Assembly: GCA_023394875.1 (NCBI GenBank)
Contig: JAEXAB010000003.1
Location: forward strand, 364,334-428,333
DNA from: Bacillota bacterium
GTDB taxonomy: Bacteria > Bacillota > Clostridia > Christensenellales > DTU072
DNA: 64,000 nt
Reading direction: 5' to 3'
Part shown: positions 18,101 through 57,758 of the stretch, one piece after another
Layout of the letters: each line of letters starts with the position of its first letter
Position numbering within the stretch: position 1 is the stretch's first letter
Translations under genes and position numbers: made by a program
The notes under the pieces: model-generated
Told to the model about the DNA's origin: nothing
The model's database searches: none
Seen by the model: only the letters and a program-made list of their open reading frames with translations

Positions 18101-18560
18101 CAGAAGTTAATGCCGCACAACCATAAAATGCGTGACTGCCTATAGTTTCTATTACGTTCGGCAACACAACTTCTTCTAGATAGATTAAATCAGCAAAGGC
18201 ATAATCACCAACGGCGGTATCAGAAGCAATTATTACGGTCGTCAAGCTAACGGGAACAAGGCTATCAAAGATATACTCAAATTTGTCTTCCGCTCCTGTT
18301 GCGTCTATGTTTTTGCCGATAAACGGTAGCCCAATAGTTTGTAAATTACTACAACCTCTGAAAGATCCTTGTCCGATTTCCAAAATATTATCGCCGACAG
18401 TTACCGAAGTAAGAGTTGTTAAATAAACAAAACCTTCGGGAGCAACTGCCACTACCGGCAAGCCGTTATAAGTTTCGGGTAAAATTATACTGCTTGGATA
18501 AATATCGTCACTTACGTTTTCGCTTCTTGAAACGATATAACCTGTTTCTAAGTCGTTTAA
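12123..18560 (-). repeat. Coding repeat region of BspA-type LRR units (about 23-25 aa each)
   Basis: Starts after ...YEHIYSYELNDLETGY (about nt 18560-18590). IG..AF..C..L..I.IP..V motifs continue to the C-terminus. Confidence 0.7.
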
Positions 18561-21500
18561 TTCATAACTATAGATATGTTCGTATCTGCCGTAGGCATTT
18601 ATTATCCTGCCGTCAACGTCGGGCATAGAAATAGGAAGGCTGTTGCCTTCAATATCATACCAACCGATAAACACGTAACCTATTATTTCTTCGGGAGAAT
18701 CAAGATAATTTATACTATCGCCGTAGTGGTATAAATATTCTTCGGTGTCAAGATAAGGAGTATTTTCTTCATACTCTGCGCCGATTATATAGTATTTAAC
18801 CTCATAATCATAATAATTATAAACCGCGCTATAGTTTACGTTCTCTCCTAAACCGAAAGTAAATTCATTTTCGGTGCTTACGTCAATAATACCGCCGTCG
18901 TTTATCCATTTAACAAAATACTGACCGATAATGGTGTCGGCTTTTATGTTAATCGATGTTCCGTAGTCGTAAGTACCTTGCGTTAACGGCGTTTGCAAAT
19001 CGGCACCGTTTACTTTGGTAATTTTTCCGTTAGTAAGGTTTACCGTGTGTTTATCAATAACGTAAGAACCGGTAATAATAATATTTCTGTCCAAATTAGT
19101 AATTACCGACGGGAATACTTGATATCCTATAAGCTGCCAGCCACCAAAGGAATAATGTTCAATATAATCAGGATGCGGCAACGTTTCTATAACGTCGGTA
19201 TAAATGTAATATTCCGAAGAATAAAGGAAGTTATCATATCCCGCTCCGTTTATGAAATATTCTACTTTGTAAGACACATACTCATATACTACCTCAATTT
19301 CGGTATCTGTCTGAATATAAAAGCTGTATTCGGTACTAGTGGTTACCGTTATTCCGTCCATTCTTATTTCCACAAATCGGCGACCTGGTTGATTGCCTAT
19401 GTTGGCAACGCTTACAGCTGTATTATAATCAAATATTGCCGATTTTACTTCGTATCCTACAATCCTACCGTCGTTGTTTACCGTCAAAGTATGTCTGGAG
19501 GGTACGAATATCGCCGACAAATGGATATCTTTACTTAAGGTATAGACGTATTCTCCGTTATATTCGGCATAAGGCGTATCTACCACGTTGTAATTTTCAT
19601 TGGGATACTGAGTTATCCATTTCTTAAACCACTTACCTATAGGCAACTGAGCTTGAATAGTAAACTCTGTACCGTAATCATATGGATACGGTCCGCCGGT
19701 TATCGGTGTTTCCAAAGTAACTCCGTCAACAGCTACGATAAAGCCGTATTCTATGGTAACTTCGTGTTGGTCAATAATAAATTCTCCCACGCAAATAAGG
19801 TCGTAAGCGGGCATTCTTGAGGGGATTTCTCCTCCGCCTTCCAAAGTCCAACCGCTGAAATGATAATTCTCTTGAATAGGATCGTCAGGCACTGCTATTA
19901 CTTGGTCATACTTGTACATATACTGCCAAAGCGGATTGTCATAATCGCCGTCTAGTATATAAATAACGTTATAAAGGGTATCCCCAAAGTTAGCGGTAAA
20001 GGAAATGTTCCCCGTCAAAGTAAAGGTATATTCCTCAAGGGAACTTATTGTCAGTCCTGCCGACTTCCAATTTTGGAAATATTTGCCTGTTATGGTATCG
20101 GATTTGATTGTTAATTGGTCGTTGTAATCAAAAGTACCGCTTGTACTCGGGGTTATACTTTCGCCGTTTTTCTTAATTATCTTGCCGTCAACAATGCTTA
20201 CGGTATGTTTGTTGTAGTAGAAAATACCCTCTACTCTGACGTTACCGGCAGGCATTCTGTCGGGGATTTCCGACCAGTTGCCGAAATAATGGTTGGCTCT
20301 TACCGGTGAAGAAAGTTTCACTATCGGCTCATCAAAATCATAAGACTGCGCTTGATAGAGTTCAAAATCGGATTCGTAAACGGCCTTAATATAATACTCC
20401 ACAAGGTAAACGCCTTTGTTGATATAGGCAGTGTATGCCTTGTTGCCCGAAACTCTGAATACATAAGGATTGGTATAACTTACTATTTCGTTGGCGCCCA
20501 CTTTCCAATGCATGAAAATATAACCCGTCGGAACCGTCGCGCTGATGGAAATCTCTTGGTTATAGTCATATACATTGGTTGTTTCTTCGCCCGTTAGCCC
20601 GTTATAGACGGTTATTGTATGCTTTTCTATTGTGAAAGTACCGTAAATGGTAAGGTCGTGAGCAGGCATGGTAGTGGGTACGTCACTCCATCCGCTAAAA
20701 GGCAGATAATGTTCGCAAGAAATATTGCCGGGCACAACAACCGTTCTGTCCCCGTAGTTTAATTCAAAGCTGGCGTATATTCCGCCAACCGACTTATTAA
20801 TTTCTGACTGATATGCCTTTAGGTTTGCTAAATCTTCCCCTACAACCAGTATTTCATATCTAAGAATATAATTTATTTTGGTAAACTCGGCTGTCAAAGT
20901 CACTGCTGAAGTTACGTTGAAACTATACGGGTTTGCCGTACTAATAACATTGCCTACACCATCTACCCAACGGGAAAAACGCTGCCCGATAGGCTCGGTA
21001 GCAACAGCTGTGGCAACCGAATTCCAACCGTAGCTGCCTGTTCCGCTACCGTTAATTACGTTTACCTGGAATTTGTCTATATTAAATACCCCTGTGACTT
21101 CAATGTCTCTCGCCGGCATTTTCATCGTGGGCGGAAGACCCGTCCAGCTGGAAAAAGTATAATGCTCTCTCGTCGGTTCGGCAAGGGGGATTATTGTTTG
21201 GTTGAACTTGTAATAATCGACCTGAACCACTACATTATCAACTTTGTAGGATATCGAATATAATTTATCCTGCGTTACCGCGACGAACTTTATTCTGCCG
21301 TTTACAACGTGCGTGAAGCTTCTTTCGTTGGTAAACGGTTCTTCTTCTCCGTCGATTTTCCAGCCTACGAATTCCTTTCCGCTGGCTGCCACAGTAAAGT
21401 TAACGGTAATAACGGTGCCTTTTTCATAAATTCCCTGTCCGTTACCGCCTGATACTTCAACTCTGTAGGCTTCTACGTATCTTGCTACCAAAGTAAGGTT

Positions 21501-22295
21501 GTTTTTTACCACCAAAGTAAAGGAGCTGTCCGTTGTGACAACGTCCCCGTCGCCGTTAAGCCAGCCTCTGCTTTGCCTGTCCTCTACGGCAAGCGCGCTT
21601 ATAACTACTTCTTCATCTAAGTGATAATAAAAATCGTTGGTAACCAAAGAAGCTCCGTCGCCGTTGGTTACGCTAACTTTATAAATAGGCTTTTCTTGAT
21701 ACTTAGCCTCCAATAATATGTTTTCTTCGTCAAGATAATTGCCTTTGGATACGCCCTTGTCGTCGGTATAGGCTTTGGAAGAATAAAACCATCCCAAAAA
21801 GTAGTAGTTCTTCAAGGTAGGCACAGGCAAAGTGTAGCCCTGTCCGTAAAGGACGGTAAAGGAACTAACTTCCGCCTCTCCTTCGTCCGCATCAAGAAAA
21901 ACAGTATAAATATCGGTATAAACGGCGGTAAGGGTTACGTCGTTATTGATAGTAAAAGTAAAAGACCTGTTTTCGGTTACTTTTGACGCCTCAAACTCCC
22001 AATACAAAAACGCCTTGTCAGTTTCGTCGGCATTTACCGTTACGCTATCCCCTTGATTATATGTATATTTTTTTATACCGTTGCCGTTGTTTACGGTAAG
22101 GGTGTAAGTTTTTGTAGTGGGAGTTGGCGGATTACCGTTGTTATCTTGTGGATTTGGTTGCAGAATTACTGCGCCGCCGTCATCCTTAATAGTTTCTTCC
22201 CCGCAGGAGACCAGCAAAAGACAGGTTAGCATCATCACTATCGCTATAGCTAATAATGTTAGTAACCTTCTCTTCATACTACCTCCGAAATACAT
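12123..22295 (-). CDS. Giant surface lipoprotein with an N-terminal Listeria-Bacteroides (Flg_new-like) B-repeat region and a C-terminal BspA-type LRR array of about 2100 aa
   Basis: One uninterrupted 3390-aa ORF. The signal peptide and lipobox (MKRRLLTLLAIAIVMMLTCLLLVSC) begin at the second ATG, 22277, which has a GGAGGT RBS. Motifs such as HY.F.GW...MPA.D recur six times. Dozens of I.IP.SVT.IG..AF..C..L repeats follow. Confidence 0.9.
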   Translation of the reverse strand: MYFGGSMKRRLLTLLAIAIVMMLTCLLLVSCGEETIKDDGGAVILQPNPQDNNGNPPTPTTKTYTLTVNNGNGIKKYTYNQGDSVTVNADETDKAFLYWEFEASKVTENRSFTFTINNDVTLTAVYTDIYTVFLDADEGEAEVSSFTVLYGQGYTLPVPTLKNYYFLGWFYSSKAYTDDKGVSKGNYLDEENILLEAKYQEKPIYKVSVTNGDGASLVTNDFYYHLDEEVVISALAVEDRQSRGWLNGDGDVVTTDSSFTLVVKNNLTLVARYVEAYRVEVSGGNGQGIYEKGTVITVNFTVAASGKEFVGWKIDGEEEPFTNERSFTHVVNGRIKFVAVTQDKLYSISYKVDNVVVQVDYYKFNQTIIPLAEPTREHYTFSSWTGLPPTMKMPARDIEVTGVFNIDKFQVNVINGSGTGSYGWNSVATAVATEPIGQRFSRWVDGVGNVISTANPYSFNVTSAVTLTAEFTKINYILRYEILVVGEDLANLKAYQSEINKSVGGIYASFELNYGDRTVVVPGNISCEHYLPFSGWSDVPTTMPAHDLTIYGTFTIEKHTITVYNGLTGEETTNVYDYNQEISISATVPTGYIFMHWKVGANEIVSYTNPYVFRVSGNKAYTAYINKGVYLVEYYIKAVYESDFELYQAQSYDFDEPIVKLSSPVRANHYFGNWSEIPDRMPAGNVRVEGIFYYNKHTVSIVDGKIIKKNGESITPSTSGTFDYNDQLTIKSDTITGKYFQNWKSAGLTISSLEEYTFTLTGNISFTANFGDTLYNVIYILDGDYDNPLWQYMYKYDQVIAVPDDPIQENYHFSGWTLEGGGEIPSRMPAYDLICVGEFIIDQHEVTIEYGFIVAVDGVTLETPITGGPYPYDYGTEFTIQAQLPIGKWFKKWITQYPNENYNVVDTPYAEYNGEYVYTLSKDIHLSAIFVPSRHTLTVNNDGRIVGYEVKSAIFDYNTAVSVANIGNQPGRRFVEIRMDGITVTTSTEYSFYIQTDTEIEVVYEYVSYKVEYFINGAGYDNFLYSSEYYIYTDVIETLPHPDYIEHYSFGGWQLIGYQVFPSVITNLDRNIIITGSYVIDKHTVNLTNGKITKVNGADLQTPLTQGTYDYGTSINIKADTIIGQYFVKWINDGGIIDVSTENEFTFGLGENVNYSAVYNYYDYEVKYYIIGAEYEENTPYLDTEEYLYHYGDSINYLDSPEEIIGYVFIGWYDIEGNSLPISMPDVDGRIINAYGRYEHIYSYELNDLETGYIVSRSENVSDDIYPSSIILPETYNGLPVVAVAPEGFVYLTTLTSVTVGDNILEIGQGSFRGCSNLQTIGLPFIGKNIDATGAEDKFEYIFDSLVPVSLTTVIIASDTAVGDYAFADLIYLEEVVLPNVIETIGSHAFYGCAALTSVNLPEGLISIGNNAFASCVALLEITIPSTVTDIGDDAFSGCSNVANIYYNAILLNDFNQANYVFNLRANNLNIIIGSTVTAIPAYLFYPVPVDLETPTTLANSVNVEFLSDDGIYSVTSIGAYAFFAVPITSISLPTTVTTIGVSAFERTDLTSLSLGASITEIGSRAFAEISNLNLNYGANITNVVDENTVIFYNTAGQLTIANNLSNIADYLFCNAAFSFVIFAENSQCISIGSYAFANNENLISIQIPSSVETIGGYAFANTKILSEIYFDAAELNNLTALSEVFCDSGIDSEGIVLTIGSSVLSIPEYLFYSVENSANVIGIVIEEGGQCVLIGKFAFYNLNNLVTVEQFELVRNIGESAFENCSGITEIVISAATRYIGTNAFANCSSIEIKCEVYAALGGWATDWKDITAPIEYNYNTIVNGDYIYALHGGKAFITKYNGLETEITVPAEIDSYTVMCFGNTYEGNENIVSIVIPDGIHQICDYAFSNCYSLTTVTYLGDINFIGKYAFNNCGSLTTFAIPPTITEISEGTFYNCSSLISVSGNKLNLSGISIIGEKAFYGCEDIEEITLSDLLSEIKAQTFAYCTSLIGITIPANVTIIAQDAFLGCAYLGYYLVDTNNIYFSASDGVLFNKDGSELIAYPVGDIRDTYEILSPVSSIAPYAFSHAVNLVSITIPNTVTVIGTGAFEYCVNLVTINYNAIDALTDNTCLFVSAGKEGSGIIITFGSDIINIPDNLFNDIDAFVIEIIFGENLLSIGQGAFVGAKITNITLPESLISIGNDAFRDTVLLETINYNPISLNNLLVDNGAFALAGTLSSGIIVYIGANVISIPDYIFSAGSDYEINIIELVYLSDALESIGKYAFYQAKLTEILITENVTFIGEKAFGNNTLVDTLNFNATLLSNSLATDNIFQNLGSALDEENYVSVIIGENVKNIPDYFAYNLIKVNFVTINSLELLRVGQFAFKGTSIVEITLPDGITEIGASAFENLNFSSLILPDSITTIGNNAFAGMNIIDSLTLPENLSIIGEGAFNNWEAITEITIPESVTRIGINAFGNATGLIIINYNAVSVADLYGNRAFDGAGSEASPVTVNIGSAVERIPNYLFVGCDYIQSVIFSGNENLVTIGEKAFYMLENLVSVVDLPSSVTSVGVSAFEGCILLTVISLTANTGNLIISDSAFSGCIGLVEVILASDSTLTAIGARAFYDCISLVTIDFGTEYILENIGDYAFYNCIALDLTLPSSIKNTVIEGQITGGIGISAFENCESLTSITIPNEVIIILEGAFKNCISLTTVVMHSNIEYIGESAFEGCTALSELTVPEKVTHIGNKAFYNCAGATTINYLPVAFGIEMENTENNNIFGNVGVDGAGADLVIGASVKKIPSFLFYGTLASSPKIISIVFETVSGMSSVQEIGIKAFYYAKDLQILVLPEGLLTIQDQAFANCLNLEQLTIPSSVTLIKYRAFANLNKLTDLVYNAVNCSDFNNDNTEINKTEVFIGMGNYSDEFYTNEGVLVIIGNLVETIPENMFYSLDNRAKIKEVVLELTTNLVTISNNAFFMQESLTTISNIGTTILIIGESAFYGCSSFVSAEVMEYATTVKNEAFYNCASLPALYLATNLETLGNTAVYMDCSSVENVYVNTTNLPRNPFVGYNTIFKGVGGEEGFILHIAENVNYIPDHFMHNFENFGIDGEIGEWTINIIELNIANPGIEIGDYAFAGVGKLTDVVLGITEADNIYAYIGDYAFYRCPDIIKVTLGNVMMKKSGDALLSTHTFAYSSVEELETVNFMQVPEIGPYAFYHCENLSVVNQNHDIVFRESVGWGYCDNQITTIGVYAFAYSGLVDVYLSAYISDIGAHAFEGCENMTTFRWPDNVLTIGDYAFYNCTSLAYTTNISFDMENEGTYMTNYVDLFEDGGMGTIIGKVINTLYIGYPMDKKKTVIRDIGEYAFKNTQLNISIELFNNLENVDLNAFTDMLGELRGVDFIPVVP
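18590..22100 (-). repeat. Coding repeat region of alternating beta-sandwich and Flg_new-like modules in the giant lipoprotein
   Basis: Super-repeat of about 150 aa seen in the translation, for example REHYTFSSWTGLPPTMKMPARD, CEHYLPFSGWSDVPTTMPAHD, ANHYFGNWSEIPDRMPAGN and QENYHFSGWTLEGGGEIPSRMPAYD. Boundaries are approximate. Confidence 0.6.
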
Positions 22296-32852: not shown

Positions 32853-33779
32853 CTATTCAAACAACTCTGTAGACAAATATCTATCTCCGCCGTCGGGGAA
32901 AATAACTACTATGTTTTTATTCTTATTTTCCTCTCTTTGGGAAAGCACCTTAGCAGCATAAAGGGCGGCGCCTGAGGAGATGCCTACCAACGTGCCGTCT
33001 TCTCTTGCTATCTCTTTGGCGGTAGATATGGCGTCTTCGTCGCTTACGGTTATTATTTCGTCAACTAGTTCACTGTCAAAATTATCGGGAATGAAGTTTG
33101 CGCCGATGCCTTGAATTCTGTGCGGAGCGGCATAGCCTTGCGAAAGTAAAGGTGAGGCTTTGGGTTCCACTGCGACTACTTTTATATTACTATTTTTAGC
33201 TTTTAGGAATTCCGCTATACCTCTTATTGTTCCTGCGCTGCCTACCCCTGCCACAAAAATATCCACGTTGCCGTCTAGGTCTTCATATATTTCTCTGGCG
33301 GTATTTTCTCTATGGGTTTTCGGGTTGGCTTTGTTGGAAAACTGATAAGGTATAAAGCTGTCCGCTATTTCTTTATGCAGTCTTTCGGCTTCTTCAACAG
33401 CTCCTTGCATACCTTTTGCTCTGTCGGTTAGAACTAGTTCGGCGCCCAAAAAAGCAAGTAGCTTTCTTCTTTCTATACTCATTGTTTCGGGCATAGTAAG
33501 TATACAACGGAGTTTCTTTACCGAACAAACCATGGCAAGCCCGATTCCCGTATTTCCGCTAGTCGGCTCTATTATGGCTGTATTCTTACCAATAAGTTCT
33601 CTTTCCTCTCCGTCGTTTATCATAGAAAGGGCAATCCTGTCTTTAATACTGCCCGCTGGGTTAAAATATTCCAGCTTGGCAAATATTTTGGAAGCTAAAT
33701 TATACTTCTTCTGATAATTAACTAGTTCCAAAAGAGGCGTTTTGCCTATTAAGTCGGTAATGGAACGGTACGTGTTCAT
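32853..33779 (-). CDS. cysK: Cysteine synthase A (O-acetylserine sulfhydrylase)
   Basis: 308 aa. DLIGKTPLLEL...LEYFNPAGSIKDRIA contains the PLP-lysine motif, and TSGNTGIGLA is present. Confidence 0.92.
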   Translation of the reverse strand: MNTYRSITDLIGKTPLLELVNYQKKYNLASKIFAKLEYFNPAGSIKDRIALSMINDGEERELIGKNTAIIEPTSGNTGIGLAMVCSVKKLRCILTMPETMSIERRKLLAFLGAELVLTDRAKGMQGAVEEAERLHKEIADSFIPYQFSNKANPKTHRENTAREIYEDLDGNVDIFVAGVGSAGTIRGIAEFLKAKNSNIKVVAVEPKASPLLSQGYAAPHRIQGIGANFIPDNFDSELVDEIITVSDEDAISTAKEIAREDGTLVGISSGAALYAAKVLSQREENKNKNIVVIFPDGGDRYLSTELFE

Positions 33780-34729
33780 AATCCCTCCGAAAATTCCAGT
33801 AATTTTTTAACGTCAAAGTTTGCGCCCTTAACTGCAACGGATAAGGAACTTGCCTTGCAGGCAAACATTAATGCTTTTTTTAGGGTTTCTTCTTTAAGGT
33901 TGTCAATATTAAGAACATTTTTTTCAAAATAATAAAGGAAAGAGCCGATAAAAATATCTCCCGCGCCTGTGGTGTCAACTACCGTTTCTACCTTGTAGCC
34001 CGAAAATTTTACCGCAAAATCCTTAGTAATTGCCATTGCGCCGTCTGCCCCTAAGGTAAGCAACAACAATTTTGCTCCATTACTAAGCAAACTTTTTGCT
34101 CCTCTTATAATATCGGTATCGTCTGTAAGAAACTCCACTTCGTCATCACTCACTTTTAGGATATCGGCATATTTACAAAATTCCAAAACGGTGTTTTTTA
34201 GTTCCTCTTTGCTATCCCAAAGAGGAAAACGCAAATTAGGGTCAAAGGATACTATCCCTTTGTTTTTCTTTGTATAATTTATAGCTTCTATATGGGCGTA
34301 TTTCGTGGGGCATTCTACCAAGTCAACCGAACAAAAATGCAGGATATTATTATTAAAATATTCTTCTTTTAGTTCTTCTTTATCAATGAGCATATCGCTG
34401 CCCGGCTTGCGGTAAAAGGCAAAATCTCTGTCGCCGTTCTTATCCAAACTGACAAAGGCAAGAGAAGTGTTTGCTAAATCGGTTCTTAATATAAGTGAAG
34501 TATCCACGCCCTTTGACATTAAGGTAGCAATGATAAAATCCCCGAAAGCGTCAAAGCCTAGTTTCGTTAAAACCTTTCCCTCTCCGCCTAGCGTTGCGTA
34601 AGCTGTCGCTACGTTAGTAGGCGCCCCGCCTAAGTGCCTTTCAAAATTAACCACTTGAGATAACGGCACACCTTTTTCTTTTGGTATAAAATCTATGAGG
34701 GCTTCTCCGATTGCTATCAAACTGCGCAT
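33776..34729 (-). CDS. PfkB-family carbohydrate kinase (fructokinase-like)
   Basis: 317 aa with N-terminal IGEALIDFIP and C-terminal DTTGAGDIFIGSF motifs. It overlaps the cysK start by 4 nt. Confidence 0.8.
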   Translation of the reverse strand: MRSLIAIGEALIDFIPKEKGVPLSQVVNFERHLGGAPTNVATAYATLGGEGKVLTKLGFDAFGDFIIATLMSKGVDTSLILRTDLANTSLAFVSLDKNGDRDFAFYRKPGSDMLIDKEELKEEYFNNNILHFCSVDLVECPTKYAHIEAINYTKKNKGIVSFDPNLRFPLWDSKEELKNTVLEFCKYADILKVSDDEVEFLTDDTDIIRGAKSLLSNGAKLLLLTLGADGAMAITKDFAVKFSGYKVETVVDTTGAGDIFIGSFLYYFEKNVLNIDNLKEETLKKALMFACKASSLSVAVKGANFDVKKLLEFSEGL

Positions 34730-34763
34730 AATATTTCTCCGATATTTTTATTCCGTTAAATAG

Positions 34764-34792
34764 AGGATACCCTTGCAAAGTATATTTGTCAA
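34764..34792 (-). promoter_or_regulatory. Candidate promoter of the pfkB-cysK operon
   Basis: The minus strand reads TTGACA (34792-34787), a 17-nt spacer, then TATCCT (34769-34764). Confidence 0.35.
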
Positions 34793-34933
34793 TAATATAG
34801 TAATAATTTTACGCTGTTTTCAATAAGGTTATTTTTATGCCCCTTTTGGTATACCAAATCAGCGTGAATTCTTAGCTAATAAGATGCCATTACAAACTAA
34901 ATTTATTCTATCTGCGTAATTTCCATAATTTTA

Positions 34934-35070
34934 CCCTGATTTGGGATAATTTAGGGTAATTGAAACAAGCATTTTATAGTATTTTCGCCGTTGAAAAAAT
35001 ACCTTTAATTACCCTTAATTTAGGTGCCCATAATTGCGATTATAGTTGTTTATAACTGCCCAAATCAGGG
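34934..35070. repeat. Nested inverted repeats in the gene-free region
   Basis: Outer pair, perfect 12-mers: CCCTGATTTGGG (34934-34945) and CCCAAATCAGGG (35059-35070). Inner pair, 13 of 14 matching: AATTTAGGGTAATT (34948-34961) and AATTACCCTTAATT (35007-35020). Confidence 0.8.
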
Positions 35071-35072
35071 AC

Positions 35073-35133
35073 TTATCCACAATTATTCAAAAAGTTATCC
35101 ACAATTATGCACAGTTATCCACAGTTTTTCACA
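35073..35133 (+). promoter_or_regulatory. Head-to-tail DnaA-box array
   Basis: TTATCCACA at 35073, 35095 and 35115. TTATGCACA at 35105. One-mismatch boxes TTATTCAAA at 35083 and TTTTTCACA at 35125. All share one orientation, and the last four are spaced exactly 10 bp apart. Confidence 0.7.
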
Positions 35134-35195
35134 TTTTGTAACTATTCTGTTGCTAGGTTACAATAAGGTAATTTTTGTTTAAGTTACCCAAACTG

Positions 35196-35224
35196 TTTAC
35201 TAATATGCTTATTTAAGATATAAT
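35196..35224 (+). promoter_or_regulatory. Sigma-A-type promoter of the 526-aa LRR lipoprotein gene
   Basis: TTTACT (35196-35201), a 17-nt spacer, TATAAT (35219-35224), an AGGAG RBS, then the ATG at 35251. Confidence 0.5.
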
Positions 35225-35250
35225 TAACTTGCTTAATTATAATTAGGAGT

Positions 35251-36831
35251 ATGAAGTTGAAGTTTAAGAGTTTGTTTACCATATTATTAGTCATTCTTTG
35301 CGCTTGCATTTTTTTCGGATGCAATAATTATGACTTTACCAAATTGAACATTGAGTGCGAAAACGTAATCGACGCGCCCGAAGGTGACTATACTCTTATT
35401 TATTCCATTAAGGATTACGAAAAATTCGCTCAAAAGTACGACCTTACCATAAAGGTAAAGGCGTTTGACCAAAACAACGCCGAAGTGGAAGTAAAAAACA
35501 ACCGTACCATAAACGTAAAAAAGGATTACGAATACACAGTAATTGTATATTGCTCTACGTTAATAAAAGAAGAACCGACAACCAAACAAAGACAATTTAC
35601 CGTTAAAGCGGTAAAGAGCCCCCCTTCGGTCAATTTTGTGTTGAAATACGGCACAATTACCCAAACCCACAGGACGATAGTCGTTGACTACGCGGGAAAC
35701 TTAAGTATGGCCGACGTGCCCGAACTTCCCAACTGGTATCCCGACTATAAAGAAGGTATTCAAAAAAATATCATTTCAAAAAAATGGGTGGTAATAATAG
35801 ACGGCAACGAAGAAGACCTTGCGCAGTCGCATTTAGAGAATATCACCACGCAAATAACCGTTTACGGCGTATATGAATTTGAAATAGTTTACGTTAAGTT
35901 GAGTATAAAGTTCAATTCCAACGGAGGCTCTTCGGTAGAGGACATTTCGGGAACGTTGCACCAAACCATTAACCGCCCGAATAATCCCACCAAAGACGGG
36001 GCAACTTTTGACGGTTGGTACGTTGACGCCGACTTAAAAACTCCTTACAACTGGAACGAACAAAGTGTATTTGCCAAAAATATGACGGTATACGCCAAGT
36101 GGTTGGACGTTGTGGGCAATCATATTGAATTTGATAAACTAAATTATACGTTGGCAACCGACGACTACGGCAACAACTACTATTCAATAACCGCCAAAGA
36201 AAGCGCAGAAATACCTACTTTGCTAGTTCTTCCCAACGGTTATAACAATATCCCCATTAAGAGAATCGGCGATAACGCTTTCCAAGGGAAAGGTATTGTT
36301 AGTTTGTATATTCCATCGTCCATAACGATTATTAGCACCGAAGCCTTTATGGATTGCGGAGAACTACTATCGGTAGAATTTGAAATCGGAAACAAAATGC
36401 TTGCTTTAGGTTGGAAAGCCTTCAAGAACTGTACTAATTTAAGTTCCATAATAAATTTACCATCTACCCTTACCGACTTAGGTAAAGAAACTTTCTATGG
36501 TTGTTCTTCTCTTACTTCCTTTGTAATCCCGTCGGGCGTGGATTCTCTTAAAGAAGGGGTATTCAGAAACTGCACGGCGCTTACCGGCATAATAATACCA
36601 GATAACGTGGTGGAAATAATAAAGGACGCCTTTAAGGGTTGTACTTTACTTGAAACGGTCACCATTAATCAAACCTCCAAACTGGAAGCTATAGCTCAAG
36701 GAGCCTTTGAAAACACCGCCGTAACTTCTATTACTCTGCCGTTTTTCTTCGATGGCAAAACCAATCCTTTTGACGGAACAAGCATAACGGTTACTTACCA
36801 TGCAAAAGTAACGGTTGAGGAAGAAGAATAA
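35251..36831 (+). CDS. Surface lipoprotein with one Flg_new-like B-repeat and BspA-type LRRs
   Basis: 526 aa. Lipobox LVILCACIFFGC. The B-repeat reads GATFDGWYVDADLKTPYNWNEQSVFAKNMTVYAKW. LRR units follow, such as IPIKRIGDNAFQG...IPSSITIISTEAFMDC. Confidence 0.85.
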   Translation: MKLKFKSLFTILLVILCACIFFGCNNYDFTKLNIECENVIDAPEGDYTLIYSIKDYEKFAQKYDLTIKVKAFDQNNAEVEVKNNRTINVKKDYEYTVIVYCSTLIKEEPTTKQRQFTVKAVKSPPSVNFVLKYGTITQTHRTIVVDYAGNLSMADVPELPNWYPDYKEGIQKNIISKKWVVIIDGNEEDLAQSHLENITTQITVYGVYEFEIVYVKLSIKFNSNGGSSVEDISGTLHQTINRPNNPTKDGATFDGWYVDADLKTPYNWNEQSVFAKNMTVYAKWLDVVGNHIEFDKLNYTLATDDYGNNYYSITAKESAEIPTLLVLPNGYNNIPIKRIGDNAFQGKGIVSLYIPSSITIISTEAFMDCGELLSVEFEIGNKMLALGWKAFKNCTNLSSIINLPSTLTDLGKETFYGCSSLTSFVIPSGVDSLKEGVFRNCTALTGIIIPDNVVEIIKDAFKGCTLLETVTINQTSKLEAIAQGAFENTAVTSITLPFFFDGKTNPFDGTSITVTYHAKVTVEEEE

Positions 36832-38290: not shown

Positions 38291-39563
38291 CGCAATCCTC
38301 CCTAAAATTGCTCACTACTCCTATATCGCCCACTATTTTAGCAAGTTCGGTACAAAAATATCTTTCTATATCGGTGCTTATTATCTTTCTTGTAAAGGAA
38401 ATAACCGTTTTATCCTTATAGGATATTATCCCCATATTTATAGGCGTTTTTGCGCTGCAATTTAGATTAAACATAAAGTGGTTGATTTTATCCCCCGCCT
38501 CAATATTGACGTTACCTAAGTTACTTATAATCATAGTTTGTTTTGGTTTGGTGGAACTGATTCTTCCCACCTTAGAAATAAACGCCTTTATGGCAAGGGG
38601 CAAGTAGCGTAGTAACGGCATTTTATCCATTAGGGAAGTAAAACTAAGCTTGGTTTGAAGTTCCTCAATGGTCAACTGTTCGTTGATTCCGTTTTTTATA
38701 ACTTCTATAAAAGCTTCCAACGTTTTCGGGGTGTTAAAAGGTATAATACACTTTGCAAAAACGGTAAAATTCCCTAAGGTGTCGGAAGGGAACTGCTTGC
38801 GTAAATTAACAGGTATAAAGGCTACCAGATTTTCTTTTTTTGTATCGTAATCGGCAGATTGCGCAACAGAAAGCATAGCCAAAGCCGATATAAACACCGT
38901 AATAGTGGTTTTATAAGCTCTAGCGCTATTAAGTAAGCCTTGAGTGTTGACAGTGGCTTGAATTAGTCCAAAACCGCTACCCGAAAATTGCTTTGACTTT
39001 ACGCCGTAGGCGTAGCCTCCCGCCATTTTCTTAGTGCCCTCTATCAAATCGACTTTCTTATAATATTTTTGAAAAGCGTCTTCAATTTCTCCAGGCTTTT
39101 TTATGGTAGACAAAGTTATTATGCCCTGTTTTGTAATAGGGTCGTTTTTTAGTTTGAAATAATAGTATATTATGGTTTTCAAAAATTCCAACGCGCCGCT
39201 CCCGTCGCAAAGTCCGTGGAAAATGTCCATAAAAATGCGTTTTTTATAATAAGTGACGCGGAAAAGATAATTTCTGTTGTGCCTGAAGTTGAGAATTTTC
39301 AATAACGCTCCGTCATCCTCTTCCACAATGGGAGTAAGGTTGTTTTCATCTAAATAATGACGGAAAAAGCCTCTTTTTAGTTCTACCTTATAAAAAGGAT
39401 ACCTTACCAGAGCCGAATTTAGCGCAGAACTAAGGTGGTCTTTGTCAACGTCTTCGTTAAGACAAACTCCTACGCGGAACAGGCTTTGGGATTTTAAGGT
39501 AATTACCAACGGATAAATCATTGCCGAATTATCCAGTCGGTACCATTTATGTTTTATTATCAT
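38280..39563 (-). CDS. Condensation/alcohol-acetyltransferase-like acyltransferase (HxxxD)
   Basis: 427 aa with DIFHGLCDGSGALEF, the HxxxD catalytic motif of the condensation/WS-DGAT/PapA5-like superfamily. The family call is from memory. Confidence 0.6.
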   Translation of the reverse strand: MIIKHKWYRLDNSAMIYPLVITLKSQSLFRVGVCLNEDVDKDHLSSALNSALVRYPFYKVELKRGFFRHYLDENNLTPIVEEDDGALLKILNFRHNRNYLFRVTYYKKRIFMDIFHGLCDGSGALEFLKTIIYYYFKLKNDPITKQGIITLSTIKKPGEIEDAFQKYYKKVDLIEGTKKMAGGYAYGVKSKQFSGSGFGLIQATVNTQGLLNSARAYKTTITVFISALAMLSVAQSADYDTKKENLVAFIPVNLRKQFPSDTLGNFTVFAKCIIPFNTPKTLEAFIEVIKNGINEQLTIEELQTKLSFTSLMDKMPLLRYLPLAIKAFISKVGRISSTKPKQTMIISNLGNVNIEAGDKINHFMFNLNCSAKTPINMGIISYKDKTVISFTRKIISTDIERYFCTELAKIVGDIGVVSNFREDCDVL

Positions 39564-40945
39564 TTGGATTTTATATATTTGTCTATGGCTGCGGCGGCTT
39601 TTTTACCCATGCCCATTGCCAAAATGACAGTTGCCGCTCCGCTGACAGCATCCCCGCCGGCATAAACCCCTTCTCTACTGGTTAAGCCGTCGGAATCTAC
39701 AATTATTCCTCCCCATTTCTGTGTGGCAAGTCCGTCTGTTGTGTTCTTTAATAGCGGATTAGGGGAAGAGCCTATGGACATAATGACAGCGTCAACGTCC
39801 AAAATAAACTCACTTCCTACTTTTTCTATCGGTCTTCTTCTGCCTGTGGAATCGGGCTCTCCTAATTCCATTTCCGAACATTTCATACCGATAACGTTGT
39901 AATTATCATCCCCCAAAATTTCAATAGGGTTAGTAAGCAGCTTAAAAATAACTCCCTCTTCCTTAGCGTGATGAATTTCTTCGGCTCTGGCGGGCAGCTC
40001 CTTTTCCGAACGGCGGTATACTATATAAACCTTTTCGGCGCCCAGTCTTAGAGCGCATCTTGCCGCGTCCATAGCCACGTTGCCGCCACCTATTACCGCC
40101 ACATTTTTATAGCGGTTAATGGGTGTGTCCGAACCATCCTTATACGCTTTCATTAGGTTAATTCTAGTCAGAAACTCATTGCTTGAGTATACTCCGTTGA
40201 GGTTTTCTCCCTTTATATTCATAAAGTTAGGTAATCCCGCTCCGCTTCCGATAAAAATAGCTTCATATCCTTTCGCCATTAGGTTATCTACCGAAAAAGT
40301 CTTTCCTATTACGCTGTTTGTCTTAATTTCCACGCCCAGTTCTTTTAGGTTTTCGATTTCCTTTTGCACAATGGTTTTGGGCAGACGGAATTCGGGTATG
40401 CCGTACACCATAACGCCGCCCGCAACGTGAAGAGCCTCAAAGACGGTCACTTTATAGCCCATTTTTGCCAAATCTCCGGCACAAGTCAGTCCCGACGGGC
40501 CCGAACCTATTATAGCCACCTTGTGACCGTTAAAAACAGGTTTAGGCAGTTTTTCTTTGCTGTTTTGCATATGATAATCGGCAACGAAACGTTCCAGTTT
40601 GCCAATAGCTACCGGCTCTCCGTTTTTGCCTCTTACGCACATACTTTCGCATTGAATTTCTTGCGGGCAAACTCTTCCGCAGACTGCGGGAAGAGAAGTG
40701 GATTCCTTTAGCACCTTATACGCTACTTCAAAATTTTCTTTGGCTACTTCTCCGATGAATTTTGGTATATCTATCCCAACCGGGCAAGCCGAAGAACAGG
40801 GCTTGTTTTTACAGTTTAAGCATCTTTTTGCTTCGTCGACAGCCTGACTTACGCTATACCCAAGCTCCACTTCGGAAAAATTCTTTATCCTCTCAATCGG
40901 AGACTGCTCGGGCATTTTGTTTTTATCTTTTCTCATGTTATACAT
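39560..40945 (-). CDS. nfnB: GltD-like NADPH-dependent oxidoreductase, probable NfnB subunit
   Basis: 461 aa. N-terminal Cys clusters CLNCKNKPC...CPV and CGRVCPQEIQCE, two dinucleotide-binding motifs (IIGSGPSGL and VIGGGNVAMD), and pairing with an NfnA-like gene. Confidence 0.75.
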   Translation of the reverse strand: MYNMRKDKNKMPEQSPIERIKNFSEVELGYSVSQAVDEAKRCLNCKNKPCSSACPVGIDIPKFIGEVAKENFEVAYKVLKESTSLPAVCGRVCPQEIQCESMCVRGKNGEPVAIGKLERFVADYHMQNSKEKLPKPVFNGHKVAIIGSGPSGLTCAGDLAKMGYKVTVFEALHVAGGVMVYGIPEFRLPKTIVQKEIENLKELGVEIKTNSVIGKTFSVDNLMAKGYEAIFIGSGAGLPNFMNIKGENLNGVYSSNEFLTRINLMKAYKDGSDTPINRYKNVAVIGGGNVAMDAARCALRLGAEKVYIVYRRSEKELPARAEEIHHAKEEGVIFKLLTNPIEILGDDNYNVIGMKCSEMELGEPDSTGRRRPIEKVGSEFILDVDAVIMSIGSSPNPLLKNTTDGLATQKWGGIIVDSDGLTSREGVYAGGDAVSGAATVILAMGMGKKAAAAIDKYIKSK

Positions 40946-40950
40946 AGTTA

Positions 40951-41787
40951 TTATCCTTTTTTATAAAGGTTGCAGGAGTCTTCGCGCTTTTTGTTCTCTC
41001 TGTCGCGGTACTTAACCGAATTCTTAATCGCGCCGTCAAAGTCTACCAGATGTCCGTCAAAATCCGGCCCGTCCACGCAGGCAAACTTCATTTCTCCCCC
41101 GACTCTCAATCTACACCCTCCGCACATACCTGTGCCGTCTATCATAATGGTATTCATGCTTACCGTTGTTTTTACGTTGTATTTTTTAGTTAGCAGAGAA
41201 ACAAACTTCATCATTACAAGGGGACCTATGGCAAAAACTTCGTCATATTCTTCTCCGCTCAAAATAAGCTTTTCCAAAGCGTCGGTTACTAAGCCTTTTG
41301 TGCCGTAACTGCCGTCGTCGGTAACAATAATTAGCTTGTCACTAACTTCCTTCATTTCATCTTCCAATATAAGAAGGTCTTTATTTCTAAACCCTGCAAT
41401 CAAATGTACAACCGTGCCTTGATTATGCAGTTTTTTCGCCACCGGAAAAGCTATGGCGCAACCAACACCCCCGCCGATTACCGCAACTTTCTTTAGTCCT
41501 TTTGTTTCGGTCGCTTTGCCAAGGGGCCCTACTAGGTCTTGTATATATTCCCCTTCATTTACGCTGTTTAATTTTTGGGTAGAAGAACCCACTATTTGAA
41601 ACATTATTCTTATAGTGCCCGCTTCCCTGTCAAAATCGGCAATGGTAAAAGGCACTCTTTCGCCCTCTTCGTCCACCCTCAAAATAATAAACTGCCCCGC
41701 ATCGGCGCTTGCCGCCACGTCGGGAGCTTCTATTACCATTTCGGTAACGAAGTTATTAAGGTTTCTTTTACTTAAAACTTTAAACAT
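40951..41787 (-). CDS. nfnA: Sulfide/dihydroorotate dehydrogenase-like FAD/NAD-binding protein, probable NfnA subunit
   Basis: MFKVLSKRNL... The C-terminal GTGMCGGCR...CVDGPDF is a 2Fe-2S motif. I chose the ATG at 41787 (GGAG RBS) over the TTG at 41799. Confidence 0.75.
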   Translation of the reverse strand: MFKVLSKRNLNNFVTEMVIEAPDVAASADAGQFIILRVDEEGERVPFTIADFDREAGTIRIMFQIVGSSTQKLNSVNEGEYIQDLVGPLGKATETKGLKKVAVIGGGVGCAIAFPVAKKLHNQGTVVHLIAGFRNKDLLILEDEMKEVSDKLIIVTDDGSYGTKGLVTDALEKLILSGEEYDEVFAIGPLVMMKFVSLLTKKYNVKTTVSMNTIMIDGTGMCGGCRLRVGGEMKFACVDGPDFDGHLVDFDGAIKNSVKYRDRENKKREDSCNLYKKG

Positions 41788-41801
41788 AATTTTCTCCAAA
41801 A

Positions 41802-42659
41802 TTATTGGATTTCGGTACTGTTAAACTTCTTTTGCAAAGTCAGATAAAAGCTGTTCTCTTTGGTTTTTATTAGAGGCAGGCTTATATCGCTTACTTTGAC
41901 GTAAAGGGGTGTTTTTTCATTGACGTCGGCGACTTTCTGTCCATCAACAGCAAGTACGGGGTAGCCGTCGTTTCTGATATTAGTAACCAAAATCTTTATT
42001 GTATCCTCATTGCCGACCACTATTGACTTAACCGCCAAAGAATGGGCGCAAATGGGAGTTATTACCAAACTTTTTGCCGAAGGCATAATAATGGGTCCCC
42101 CCGCAGAAAGGTTATAGGCGGTAGAACCGGTAGGCGTTGATATAAGTAAACCGTCGGCGCGCAGTTTTTCTATATGCTGACCGTTAATATCTACCGATAT
42201 TTCCACAATGTGCGGCAAACATCCTCTGTGAATAACCATTTCATTAAAGCCAAGATACTTATTGCCATTGCCGTCGCTTATTTCCAAAGTTATGCGGTTT
42301 TCTAAAGTAAACCTGTCTTCAATAAGCTTATCAAGGGAATCCATAAGTTCGGACGGTTCCACTTCGGACATATATCCAAGATGCCCTAAATTAATGCCGA
42401 TTAGAGGGATTTTACCGTAACCAAGTCTTCTTGCGCTCTCTAAGAAAGTGCCGTCACCGCCGAAAATTATCGCCGCCTCAATTTTATTAAAATCCTTATC
42501 CTCAATAACGTTTATTCCCAAAGGAAGAAGCTGTTCGGCTCTTTCTTTTAGACAAAAAACCGAACAGTTTTTTTCCTTGAGGTAAGAGGTTACTTTCTTA
42601 ACAGCTTCAAAGCAACCGTTTTTTTTCAGGTTAGGGATTATTAAAAATCTTTTTGCCAT
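41802..42659 (-). CDS. nadK: NAD kinase
   Basis: IFGGDGTFL (GGDG motif) and STPTGSTAYNLSAGGPI. ATG at 42659 (MAKRFLIIPN). Confidence 0.9.
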   Translation of the reverse strand: MAKRFLIIPNLKKNGCFEAVKKVTSYLKEKNCSVFCLKERAEQLLPLGINVIEDKDFNKIEAAIIFGGDGTFLESARRLGYGKIPLIGINLGHLGYMSEVEPSELMDSLDKLIEDRFTLENRITLEISDGNGNKYLGFNEMVIHRGCLPHIVEISVDINGQHIEKLRADGLLISTPTGSTAYNLSAGGPIIMPSAKSLVITPICAHSLAVKSIVVGNEDTIKILVTNIRNDGYPVLAVDGQKVADVNEKTPLYVKVSDISLPLIKTKENSFYLTLQKKFNSTEIQ

Positions 42660-42673
42660 AAATTTTCCTTTTA

Positions 42674-43726
42674 TTATACTTTTTCCACCCAATGGAATTC
42701 ATCGGGAAGACGTCCGAATTGGATGCCGGTTATATTATCGTAAGCATAACTGGATATTTTGCCCATTTCGTTGTTGTTTATTATCAAATCTTCCCCTTTG
42801 TAGTGCAATAAACCTACAGGAGAAACAACGGCTGCAGTACCTGTGCCGAAAACTTCGTCAAGCTTGCCTAACCTATACGCTTCCACAACTTCGTCAATGC
42901 TTATTCTTCTTTCTTCTACCTTATAGCCACGGCTGGAAAGTAAGTCTATTACGCTTCTTCTTGTTACTCCGTGAAGGATAGAACCCACCAAAGCCGGGGT
43001 TATTACCACGCCGTCGATTACAAAGAAGATGTTCATAGCGCCCACTTCTTCGATATACTTTCTGTCTTTGGCGTCCAGCCACAAAACCTGGTCGTAACCC
43101 TTTCTGTTTGCCATTTCTCCGGCAAGCAAAGATGTGGCATAGTTACCCATGCACTTGCATTCTCCCGTTCCTCCCAAAGGCGCTCTTACGTATTCTTCCT
43201 CTATCAATATCTTGGTAGGAGCAAGACCGTGGGCATAATAGCTGCCAACAGGGCAAAGTATTACGAAGAAAATATAGTTATGGGCGGCGTGAACACCCAA
43301 AGCCTTGTCATCAGCTATCATCGTAGGGCGGATATAAAGAGAAGTGCCCGGATCGGTAGGTATCCAGTCGCTGTCAATTTTTATTAGCTCTTTTATGCCG
43401 TTTAGTACTGCTTCTTCGTCAAAATTAGGCATGCACAGTCTGGAGGCTGACAAGTTCATTCTCTTCATGTTGTCGCGGGGACGGAACATTGTAATATTGC
43501 CTTGTTTATCCTTATATGCCTTCATTCCCTCAAATATGCCCTGTCCGTAGTGCAGTACGTTGGTGCAAGGCTCCATAGAAAAATCGCCGTAAGGAATAAT
43601 CTCCATTTCCTGCCATTTTCCCTCGGTATACTTCATTACCAACATATGGTCGGTAAAATACTTTCCAAAGCCCAGTTTTGTAAAATCGGGTTTCTCTTTC
43701 TTGTTCTTCGTCAATGTTATTTTCAT
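42674..43726 (-). CDS. ilvE: Branched-chain amino acid aminotransferase
   Basis: About 350 aa with FGKYFTDHM, LHYGQGIFEGMKAY and GECKCMGNYA motifs. ATG at 43726 follows GGAGGTG. Confidence 0.9.
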   Translation of the reverse strand: MKITLTKNKKEKPDFTKLGFGKYFTDHMLVMKYTEGKWQEMEIIPYGDFSMEPCTNVLHYGQGIFEGMKAYKDKQGNITMFRPRDNMKRMNLSASRLCMPNFDEEAVLNGIKELIKIDSDWIPTDPGTSLYIRPTMIADDKALGVHAAHNYIFFVILCPVGSYYAHGLAPTKILIEEEYVRAPLGGTGECKCMGNYATSLLAGEMANRKGYDQVLWLDAKDRKYIEEVGAMNIFFVIDGVVITPALVGSILHGVTRRSVIDLLSSRGYKVEERRISIDEVVEAYRLGKLDEVFGTGTAAVVSPVGLLHYKGEDLIINNNEMGKISSYAYDNITGIQFGRLPDEFHWVEKV

Positions 43727-43744
43727 TTTGCACCTCCACAAAAT

Positions 43745-44359
43745 TTAATATTTCAAATACTTTTTTTCTGTCCAGTTAATTGTTCTTTGTCCGTTGGTAG
43801 CTTTTGCAAAAAGCTGTTCGCTTTCTTCCTTAATACCCAATGGCGCGCTCAATACAAATTCCACATTGTCACCGTAATTGGTATCCAAAACCCTGATTTC
43901 GGTATCCTTAACTAATCTTAATAAGTTCTGATACTCTGCATAACTTGCTTGGCTCTTTCCGATAACGCATTCTTTTTTTGTTATTATCTTTGCGTTTTCT
44001 ATAGCTTGCGCTACCGCTTTGGTATATGCTCCGATAAGTCCGCTGGCTCCTAGCTTAATCCCCCCGAAATACCTTGTTACCACCGCTACTACGTCTGACA
44101 AATTCTTATTCTTCAAGGTTTGTAAAATGGGGTTTCCCGCAGTGCCTTGCGGCTCTCCGTCGTCGGAAAATTTTTGCTCTCCGCCTCTTGAGATTATCGC
44201 ATAACAGTTATGCCTTGCATCGTTATATTTTGCCGATATACCTTTAACGTATTCCATTCCCTCATCAAAGCTGTCAATATTTTTCAAGTTGCAGATAAAA
44301 ACCGAACGTTTTATTTCCAGAGTGGCGGATATAGAACCTTCGATTGTAAGATAATCCAT
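43745..44359 (-). CDS. YigZ / IMPACT family protein (UPF0029)
   Basis: 204 aa with KFSDDGEPQGTAGNPIL and VVTRYFGGIKLG motifs. Confidence 0.85.
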   Translation of the reverse strand: MDYLTIEGSISATLEIKRSVFICNLKNIDSFDEGMEYVKGISAKYNDARHNCYAIISRGGEQKFSDDGEPQGTAGNPILQTLKNKNLSDVVAVVTRYFGGIKLGASGLIGAYTKAVAQAIENAKIITKKECVIGKSQASYAEYQNLLRLVKDTEIRVLDTNYGDNVEFVLSAPLGIKEESEQLFAKATNGQRTINWTEKKYLKY

Positions 44360-45573
44360 TACTTAACTATTACCTTAATATGAACTTTCTTGCCTTTATG
44401 CAATATAAATCCGTTGTTTATATGGCTGTCGGATAGTTCATAGCCGTATTCTTTGACCGTTTCTTCGTTGATTTTTACTCCGCCGCCGTCAATTAGTCTT
44501 TTTGCTTCGCCTTTAGATTTGACTACGTTAAGTTCAACCAGTACGTCGGTTATGTTGCGGGAAGAAAACGTAATTTCCACTGTAGGCATAGAACTTTCGT
44601 CTCCGCCAAACGCTCCCTTTGCTTGGGCTAAGGCCTTGTCCGCTTCTTCCTCGCCGTGGACGATTTTTGTTACTTCATAAGCCAGTCTCTCTTTGGCTAT
44701 ATTCATTCTTTCGTCCATATTGACAGTAAGCGCGTTAATGTCTTCCATTTCCATAAAAGTTAAGAACCGCATGCACTTGTTTACGTCGGCGTCGTCTACG
44801 TTTCTGAAATATTGGAAGAACTCATAAGGAGTGGTCTTTTTTGGATCCAGCCAAACGGCGCCTTTTTGAGTTTTGCCCATCTTCTTGCCTTCGGACGTAG
44901 TCAAAAGTTCAAAGGTCATAGCGTACGCGTTTTTGCCTTCCTTTCTTCTTATTAGGTCGGCGCCTTGTAATATATTGCTCCATTGATCGTCGCCGCCGCA
45001 TTGTAAAAGACAGCCGTATTTTTGGAAAAGTACCAAAAAGTCGTAACTTTGCATCAGCATATAGTTAAATTCAAGAAAGCTCAATCCCTTTTCCATTCTT
45101 TGCTTGAAACATTCCGCTGTAAGCATTCTGTTTACCGAAAAATGCACTCCTATATCTCTGATAAAGTCCACGTAATTAAGATTCAACAACCAATCGGCGT
45201 TGTTAACCATAATCGCGGCGTTTTCCCCTTCAAAGCTAAAGAACTTGGACATTTGTTCCTTAAAGCAAGCGCAATTGTACTCAATAGTTTCTTTTGTCAT
45301 CATGCTACGCATATCGCTTCTTCCCGAAGGGTCGCCTATCATAGCCGTACCGCCGCCAATCAAAATAATGGGCTTGTGACCGGCTTTTTGCATATGGCTC
45401 ATAGCCATCAGCGCCAAAAAGTGCCCGACGTGTAAGCTATCCGCAGTAGGGTCAAACCCGATATAGAAAGGAACCGAAGTTTTGCTTAGCAGTTCATACA
45501 GCTCGTCTTCATAGACCGTCTGCTTGACAAATCCCCTTTCTCTTAGTACGTCCATTATGTTACTCTTGGTCAT
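44359..45573 (-). CDS. tyrS: Tyrosine--tRNA ligase
   Basis: 404 aa with a HIGH-type motif (DSLHVGHF), a KMGKT (KMSKS) motif and a C-terminal S4-like domain. Confidence 0.95.

Positions 45574-54185: not shown

Positions 54186-57758
<3,573 letters not shown>

Follow-up and report, generated by a model that had tools for sequence, protein, structure and literature searches.

In an uncultured clostridial bacterium, the intergenic region upstream of a lipoprotein gene contains a 51-bp array of alternating strong and weak DnaA boxes. Related uncultured gut Clostridia preserve this array nearly base for base. It lies in a 64,000-nucleotide stretch of DNA, referred to here as the window (Bacillota; Clostridia; Christensenellales; DTU072; assembly GCA_023394875.1, contig JAEXAB010000003.1, positions 364,334 to 428,333 of the forward strand). 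Its sequence makes it very probable that the array is a DnaA-binding cluster outside the replication origin. The fuller reading, that this cluster scaffolds a DnaA oligomer and has a transcriptional output, is favored here with modest confidence. The array is a new example of the non-origin DnaA-box cluster, an element type whose existence and general logic are already known.

Composition and geometry of the array

Direct reading and a pattern search of positions 35073-35133 of the window identified three perfect TTATCCACA boxes, one TTATGCACA box and two boxes with a single mismatch, all on the plus strand. They start at 35073, 35083, 35095, 35105, 35115 and 35125, exactly as listed in the original prediction that drew attention to this site. 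Elsewhere in the 64 kb, the consensus TTATNCACA is found at only two sites, 13043 and 42227, the chance expectation for the whole window being 2.15, and the approximate chance expectation of a same-strand cluster of four boxes within 51 bp is 2e-10.

Repeat finders divided the region into tandem units of 10, 20 or 22 bp, and the original prediction described it as a tandem decamer. That description misses the conserved alternation of strong and weak sites. The repeat is better read as approximately 2.5 copies of a unit of 20-22 bp (~21 bp), composed of a strong box, one nucleotide and a weak TTATGCAnn box. Strong boxes 1, 2 and 3, each TTATCCACA in the window, occupy 35073..35081, 35095..35103 and 35115..35123 (registers 0, +22 and +42, plus strand). 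Between them lie weak box a (TTATTCAAA, 35083..35091, plus strand, register +10), which has one mismatch, and box b (TTATGCACA, 35105..35113, plus strand, register +32), which stands at a weak position and matches the consensus perfectly in this genome. The gaps between these alternating head-to-tail boxes are 1-3 bp, and the spacing of the strong boxes approximates two helical turns, thus placing them on the same face of the DNA.

Two further boxes flank this core. The sixth box of the original prediction (TTTTTCACA, 35125..35133, plus strand), with one mismatch, is specific to this genome, and an inverted weak box (TTATAAACA, 35049..35057, minus strand) lies 16 bp before strong box 1. A small open reading frame (ORF) running through the array was considered and rejected by inspection, as the 22- and 20-bp units break any frame and the conservation is not codon-like.

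Conservation among related lineages

Eight lineages were compared: the window and those designated L004, L005, L019, L021, L024, L025 and L031. A scan of species-representative genomes for the PfkB protein encoded to the left of the array identified two metagenome-assembled genomes (MAGs) labeled 'uncultured Christensenella sp.', with 87% and 70% protein identity (L004 and L005, respectively). A search of 5.8 billion proteins for the lipoprotein encoded to the right recovered four full-length homologues (P0001-P0004, 57-39% identity), the contigs of which fall in L019-L025, and L031 was found by scanning metagenomes with a DNA pattern. The lipoprotein sequence, used to scan JGI metagenomes, gave no matches. 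Contigs that encode an identical PfkB protein also share an identical intergenic region and, thus, come from the same strain or species.

All eight lineages carry the array ahead of the lipoprotein gene with its orientation unchanged, and the register 0/+10/+22/+32/+42 is identical in every one of them. This constancy spans a divergence at which the downstream protein is 76-39% identical and an M20 peptidase 65-56% identical among the carriers. In a fixed-register comparison, 39 of the 51 array columns were invariant versus 3 of 105 flanking columns (Fisher p = 1e-22), the flank figure being conservative because no gaps were allowed. By this measure of the aligned sequences, the array is under strong purifying selection in syntenic relatives.

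The strong boxes of the relatives are TTATCCACA, occasionally TTGTCCACA or TTATACACA, with a G almost always directly in front. Box 1 is TTATCCACA or TTGTCCACA in all eight lineages, box 2 is invariant together with the AG that precedes it, and box 3 is TTATCCACA, TTGTCCACA or TTATACACA. The weak boxes hold TTAT(G/T/A)CA and leave positions 8-9 free. Weak box a reads TTAT(G/T/A)C(A/G)nn, with bases 1-4 and 6 invariant and base 7 an A in seven of the eight lineages, and box b keeps TTATGCA in all eight, ending in CA, TA, TG, GG or CG. Isolated extra boxes nearby are TTATACACA, TTATTCACA or TTATCCACA, in both orientations. The free positions of the weak boxes and the variants among the extra boxes represent the degeneracy expected of the DnaA consensus TTATNCACA.

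Alignment of the orthologous intergenic regions, which the original prediction had proposed as a check, thus revealed a conserved array in a conserved register. This did not extend to the sixth box, which is kept in no relative, its position being occupied by an A-run or by unrelated sequence. The inverted upstream box recurs 16-26 bp upstream of the array as a perfect TTATACACA in L004, the closest relative, and as TTTTCCACA in L005 and L025; L019 and L021 have a copy with two mismatches, and L024 lacks it. On the other side, a semi-conserved motif recognized by eye, YTTTGTARC (35134..35142, plus strand), follows strong box 3 by approximately 10 nt and varies across the lineages as TTTTGTAAC, TTTTGTATC, CTTTGTAAC, CTTTGTAGC, TCTGTATC and TTTTGTTGC.

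Two other features were seen upstream of the array. The sequence TTTAGG(T/C)(G/A)CCCATA, at 35021-35035 in the window and approximately 50 bp upstream of the array, is found in the window, L004, L005, L019 and L021, and not in the clade in which the array is linked to an M20 peptidase gene. A perfect 12-bp inverted repeat, CCCTGATTTGGG / CCCAAATCAGGG, occupies 34934-34945 and 35059-35070, its arms 113 bp apart. It ends 2 bp before strong box 1, is not conserved in L004 and encloses a segment rich in TTACCC/GGGTAA (34931, 34954 and 35009).

Box density and comparison with known DnaA-box clusters

The metric A of Ishikawa et al. divides the summed affinities of four successive boxes (TTATNCACA, with at most one mismatch) by their mean spacing and applies a threshold of 0.3 (PMC2533591). 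Stable in vivo DnaA sites of Bacillus subtilis have A values above 0.3, with a maximum of 1.64, and C at position 5 of the box marks the highest-affinity DnaA variant (PMC2533591). The array in the window reaches 5.25 (35095-35133), with 3.94 for both neighboring groups of four boxes, and it is the only site above the threshold in the 64 kb. The arrays of the relatives score 1.67-3.75, apart from that of L024, which falls below 0.3 (A = 0.18) because its weak boxes have two mismatches.

All eight stable DnaA sites of B. subtilis are dense intergenic clusters (Ishikawa et al., 2007; PMC2533591). Those outside the origin are yqeG-sda, ywlC-ywlB, ywcI-vpr, yydA-yycS, gcp-ydiF and thdF-jag, and several of them control adjacent genes, sda being activated and ywlC and yydA repressed (PMC2533591). 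Like these clusters, the array is intergenic, lies outside oriC, consists of at least four packed boxes with at most one mismatch, including TTATCCACA, is conserved among relatives and stands beside promoters of unrelated genes; the vpr gene of B. subtilis likewise encodes an exported protein. Unlike them, it is more than three times denser than the densest B. subtilis site and follows a strictly regular head-to-tail alternation of strong and weak boxes that is conserved base for base. It also belongs to a Clostridia lineage (with MAGs labeled Christensenella) rather than to Bacilli, and its neighbor genes are unrelated to those of any B. subtilis cluster.

A layout of strong and weak sites is familiar from Escherichia coli oriC, where low-affinity DnaA sites lie between high-affinity anchors (the R1-tau-I sites and the R4-C sites). 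The dnaA promoter of E. coli likewise contains ATP-DnaA boxes (Speck 1999, cited in PMC8203912). The array shares with these regions its high-affinity anchors, the same-orientation weak sites between them and a spacing of approximately one helical turn, and this layout supports cooperative filling that would depend on the nucleotide state of DnaA. It differs from E. coli oriC in having no apparent DNA unwinding element, no DnaA-trio run and no origin context, in its 10-12-bp rather than strict 11-bp spacing and in the alternation of single weak sites with anchors, in place of a run of weak sites flanked by anchors.

E. coli datA and DARS1/DARS2 are likewise chromosomal clusters of a few DnaA boxes outside the origin, and their function depends on exact geometry. 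datA needs an IHF site and promotes hydrolysis of DnaA-ATP, and ADP release by DARS involves boxes in opposite orientations. The five core boxes of the array, unlike those of DARS, all run head to tail.

Promoters around the array

The intergenic region is 521 bp long, AT-rich and flanked by the divergent pfkB and lipoprotein genes, and the array sits mid-way between two divergent sigma-A-type promoters, overlapping neither. This placement between divergent promoters is constant across the lineages. The lipoprotein gene is preceded by a sigma-A-type promoter on the plus strand (35196..35224; -35 TTTACT at 35196-35201, 17-nt spacer, -10 TATAAT at 35219-35224), at the position where one had been predicted. 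The sequence TTTACT-17-TATAAT recurs in all eight lineages, its position relative to strong box 1 ranging from +123 to +169, and in the window 63-123 bp separate the array from the -35 element downstream. The distance from the start of strong box 3 to the -35 element is 81 bp in the window, 101-104 bp in L024, L025 and L031 and 125-127 bp in L004, L005, L019 and L021. These array-to-promoter distances differ by near multiples of 22 bp, in too few independent lineages for helical phasing to be claimed.

On the minus strand, a candidate pfkB promoter, TTGACA-17-TATCCT, is located at 34792-34764. In five lineages, a strong leftward promoter, TTGACA/TTGACT-17-TAnAAT, stands at a distance of 90-107 bp on the left side of the array; it is more distant in L025 and the window.

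Additional sequences accompany the lipoprotein promoter. A perfect inverted DnaA box, TTATACACA, overlaps its -10 element in L005, L019 and L021 only. In the window, a GGTAA-N12-TTACC inverted repeat (35167..35192, plus strand) runs into GTTACCCAAAC, a sequence shared with the closer relatives, directly upstream of the -35 element, and TTACCCAAA, a box-like 9-mer with two mismatches in the orientation of the array, lies beside the -35 element. The sequence GTTACCCAAACTGTTTACT is conserved in the window, L004, L005 and L021, and L019 and L024 have it almost unchanged. A further candidate promoter directly upstream of the array, TTTAGG-16-TATAGT, was rejected, being present in the window and L004 and conserved nowhere else. 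An Rfam search of 34600-35400 gave zero matches even at E <= 1, and the only matches in the whole window were two tRNAs.

Neighboring genes and rearrangement of the locus

Protein domains were assigned with Pfam in most, not all, ORFs of at least 150 aa, with a 3390-aa ORF and ORFs shorter than 150 aa left out, and those in 39560-45573 were taken from precomputed annotation of identical contigs. The immediate neighbors have the identities that the original prediction gave them. The lipoprotein gene (35257..36831, plus strand) encodes 524 aa comprising a signal peptide, an FFGC lipobox, an unassigned N-terminal domain and Flg_new and BspA-type leucine-rich repeat (LRR_5) repeats, and it is referred to below as the LRR gene. 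The divergent left neighbor is the pfkB-family sugar kinase gene (33776..34729, minus strand), and a PALP (CysK-type) gene also lies to the left of the array on the minus strand. SpoIIE is encoded in the window as well.

The lipoprotein family is very small and evolves faster than the M20 peptidase (41% versus 65% identity for the same genome pair). Two other genes of the window, the 3390-aa ORF (12123-22295, minus strand) and a second BspA-type LRR_5 gene (1314 aa, 1417-5361, minus strand), have no DnaA boxes upstream. Sequences resembling the Spo0A box (TGTCGAA) occur at 57715-57725 of the window, upstream of its M20 gene (tttgtgtcgaatt), and at ~3074-3083 in L019, downstream of the array (TTTGTCGAAA); these may be chance matches.

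The left neighbor of the array is pfkB in the window and L004, a PP-loop ATPase gene in L005, L019 and L021 and an M20 peptidase gene in L024, L025 and L031. The ancestral order is likely to have been M20 gene, array and LRR gene. Breakpoints are found on both sides of the array, approximately two on the left and one on the right, and the array is the constant element at this rearranging locus.

Proposed mechanism

The arrangement of the boxes suggests that DnaA would assemble into a short head-to-tail oligomer on a fixed scaffold. The three high-affinity TTATCCACA boxes (0, +22 and +42), positioned on one face of the DNA, would act as anchors. By analogy with the weak sites of E. coli, the two interleaved low-affinity TTATGCAnn boxes (+10 and +32) would fill cooperatively, and only when DnaA, probably DnaA-ATP, is abundant. 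Anchors and filled weak boxes together would constitute a five-protomer, same-face complex.

The most likely output of such occupancy would be that the lipoprotein promoter, and perhaps the divergent one too, responds to DnaA and to replication status, and an effect on the timing of initiation may also be envisaged. A possible route is contact with weaker promoter-proximal boxes, such as the perfect box over the -10 element in three lineages or TTACCCAAA by the -35 element here. The array would also sequester several DnaA molecules, as do the B. subtilis clusters. Of the four roles that the original prediction put forward, a non-origin cluster, possibly regulating the lipoprotein gene, is retained in general form, and DnaA may in this way control an adhesin gene in a spore former. 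The other two, a displaced or relic origin and iterons for a different protein, fared poorly, as described below.

Several observations weigh against a transcriptional role. The distance from the array to the -35 element varies, by 45 bp between the two closest relatives, which argues against stereospecific contact with an activator. The array lies at least 80 bp from either promoter, which excludes simple occlusion in this genome. The M20 orthologue of the window (57921-59381), which shares 65%, 63% and 50% identity with its counterparts in L024, L031 and L028, respectively, is located 22 kb away and has no boxes upstream. Furthermore, two low-GC contigs, L028 (from an activated-sludge metagenome) and L034, carry a related cluster between an M20 orthologue and a BD-FAE esterase gene, with no LRR gene, so that such a cluster can persist without that gene. 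This cluster is looser, consisting of a three-box core (0/+10/+20) with three or four dispersed boxes, one of them inverted, and spreads over ~190 bp of an intergenic region that measures 550-940 bp and has 30% GC (in L028, oriented positions 4314-4509, original 9732-9927). It weakens the proposal that the array travels with the LRR gene, which, given the breakpoints on both sides, is not statistically compelling, though eight of eight orthologues are linked to an array.

Alternative explanations

The variable promoter distance and the cluster lacking an LRR gene make an autonomous titration or state-control function a serious rival. The array would then be a DnaA-buffering or DnaA-state control element with no transcriptional role, for which the promoter region is merely a tolerated location. 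This explanation accounts for an internal geometry that is invariant down to its weak sites while the distances to both promoters drift, for the change of flanking genes on both sides and for the related cluster beside an M20 gene, and it has a precedent in the conserved gcp-ydiF cluster of B. subtilis, which has no known transcriptional role (PMC2533591). Titration alone, however, needs neither conserved weak sites nor exact spacing, and it leaves aside both the perfect box over the lipoprotein -10 element in three lineages and the observation that the array precedes all eight LRR orthologues found, always in one orientation. Most B. subtilis clusters, moreover, affect neighboring genes (PMC2533591). 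On balance, buffering without a transcriptional role is considered possible, although unlikely, and a DnaA scaffold with a transcriptional output is preferred.

Binding of a protein other than DnaA would offer a different account of the repeats, with the array serving as operator or iterons for an OmpR-family response regulator or for a small protein with a DnaA domain IV-like fold. OmpR-family response regulators recognize direct repeats phased at 10-11 bp, and the repeats here are phased at 10-12 bp. The G at position 5 of the weak boxes, the C at position 5 of the strong boxes and the AG before the strong boxes also represent more constraint than the minimal TTATNCACA needs. Against this, the strong boxes are the exact highest-affinity DnaA box (PMC2533591) and would bind DnaA in vivo regardless of any other ligand, and accessory boxes nearby fit the DnaA consensus in both orientations and vary at position 5 as that consensus allows. 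The array has no linked regulator or rep gene in any lineage; its neighbors are chromosomal housekeeping genes in conserved synteny, and there is no plasmid similarity. A dedicated non-DnaA ligand, including the iteron role originally suggested, is thus unlikely.

An origin of replication, whether displaced, relic or auxiliary, might be suspected from the dense packing of DnaA boxes in an AT-rich intergenic region with divergent genes on either side and from the broad, low-GC intergenic region that houses the L028 and L034 boxes. The bipartite oriC of Firmicutes and clostridia (rpmH-dnaA and dnaA-dnaN; PMC7561715) similarly has consensus DnaA boxes in an AT-rich intergenic region. Strand composition argues otherwise. 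Windowed GC skew, calculated past the right end of the window, is negative both left and right of 35 kb and for the most part follows gene orientation. Sense-strand GC skew was compared between gene orientations in order to separate the effect of orientation from that of replication. Minus-strand genes have the higher sense skew both to the left of the array (0.104 versus 0.020 for plus-strand genes; Mann-Whitney p = 0.007) and to the right (0.104 versus -0.014; Mann-Whitney p = 0.001), which indicates that the minus strand is G-rich and leading across the whole window. The same test detected no switch of polarity across the array in the window, L028, L034, L031 or L024, and the minus strand carries the IleRS, TyrRS and PFOR genes, all of which lie right of the array. 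The original prediction had noted a change in coding-strand usage at this point; the figures hold (the minus strand accounts for 86.6% of coding bases left of the array and 58.5% of those right of it), but a replication boundary there does not.

Features expected of an origin were also missing. Between -300 and +250 bp in the eight lineages, no run of four or more DnaA-trios (TAR/YTA) was found and none was positionally conserved, using a regular expression that detected the published Clostridioides difficile trio as a positive control (PMC7561715). No AT-rich unwinding element was recognized beside the proximal boxes, as judged without energetic modeling. Firmicute and clostridial origins are reported next to dnaA (PMC7561715). 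In agreement with the original prediction, no DnaA or DnaN domain and no rnpA-rpmH-dnaA-dnaN synteny was found in the ORFs scanned (Pfam and the annotation of identical contigs), and no parS site is present in the window. An origin at this site, in any of its forms, is therefore very unlikely.

Similar arrays in gut microviruses

The DNA pattern of the array also matched eight metagenomic contigs (L029, L032, L033 and L035-L039) and nine IMG/VR contigs (L040-L048). These are mostly 4.1-4.7 kb in length, three of the metagenomic ones being shorter or truncated, and they represent Microviridae, with a Phage_F capsid gene and a Rep gene; the nearest GenBank records are Microviridae from pig faeces. 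Each microvirus has a dense array of three to five perfect DnaA boxes with TTATGCA/TGCATAA and TTGCATAAAG elements in a single intergenic region, and the strong boxes start at 0/+21/+41/+73 or 0/+11/+31/+63. The microvirus array follows the Rep gene, and close downstream of it come a TTGACA-17-TATAAT promoter and a gene encoding a membrane protein of ~210 aa. In L036, the array (2454-2535) has an Ishikawa A of 4.3. Within the literature collection searched, no paper names both 'Microviridae' and 'DnaA box'.

The array and the microviruses have a building block in common, TTATCCACA-N-TTATGCA-NN-GTTATCCACA, in which the strong boxes are two turns apart. A speculative extension, considered improbable, is that the 51-bp strong/weak array is a dedicated DnaA-state control element of Clostridia, a counterpart of datA and DARS with a geometry selected independently of its neighbors, and that a clade of gut microviruses acquired the same block. 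If so, the microviruses would use the shared block to recruit or titrate host DnaA.

Conclusions

Experimental maps of non-origin DnaA-box clusters exist for very few organisms, chiefly B. subtilis and E. coli, and the array described here comes from an uncultured, gut-associated lineage of Clostridia. Because the element type and its logic are already known, the practical value of this example is moderate. It supplies a sequence signature with which more such clusters may be found in Clostridia. Its five sites, kept in a fixed register amid flanking DNA that is almost unconserved, offer a natural substrate for studying cooperation between anchor sites and the weak sites that would fill in between them. 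The array is also suited to asking whether, in these bacteria, DnaA couples replication status to the expression of a surface protein.

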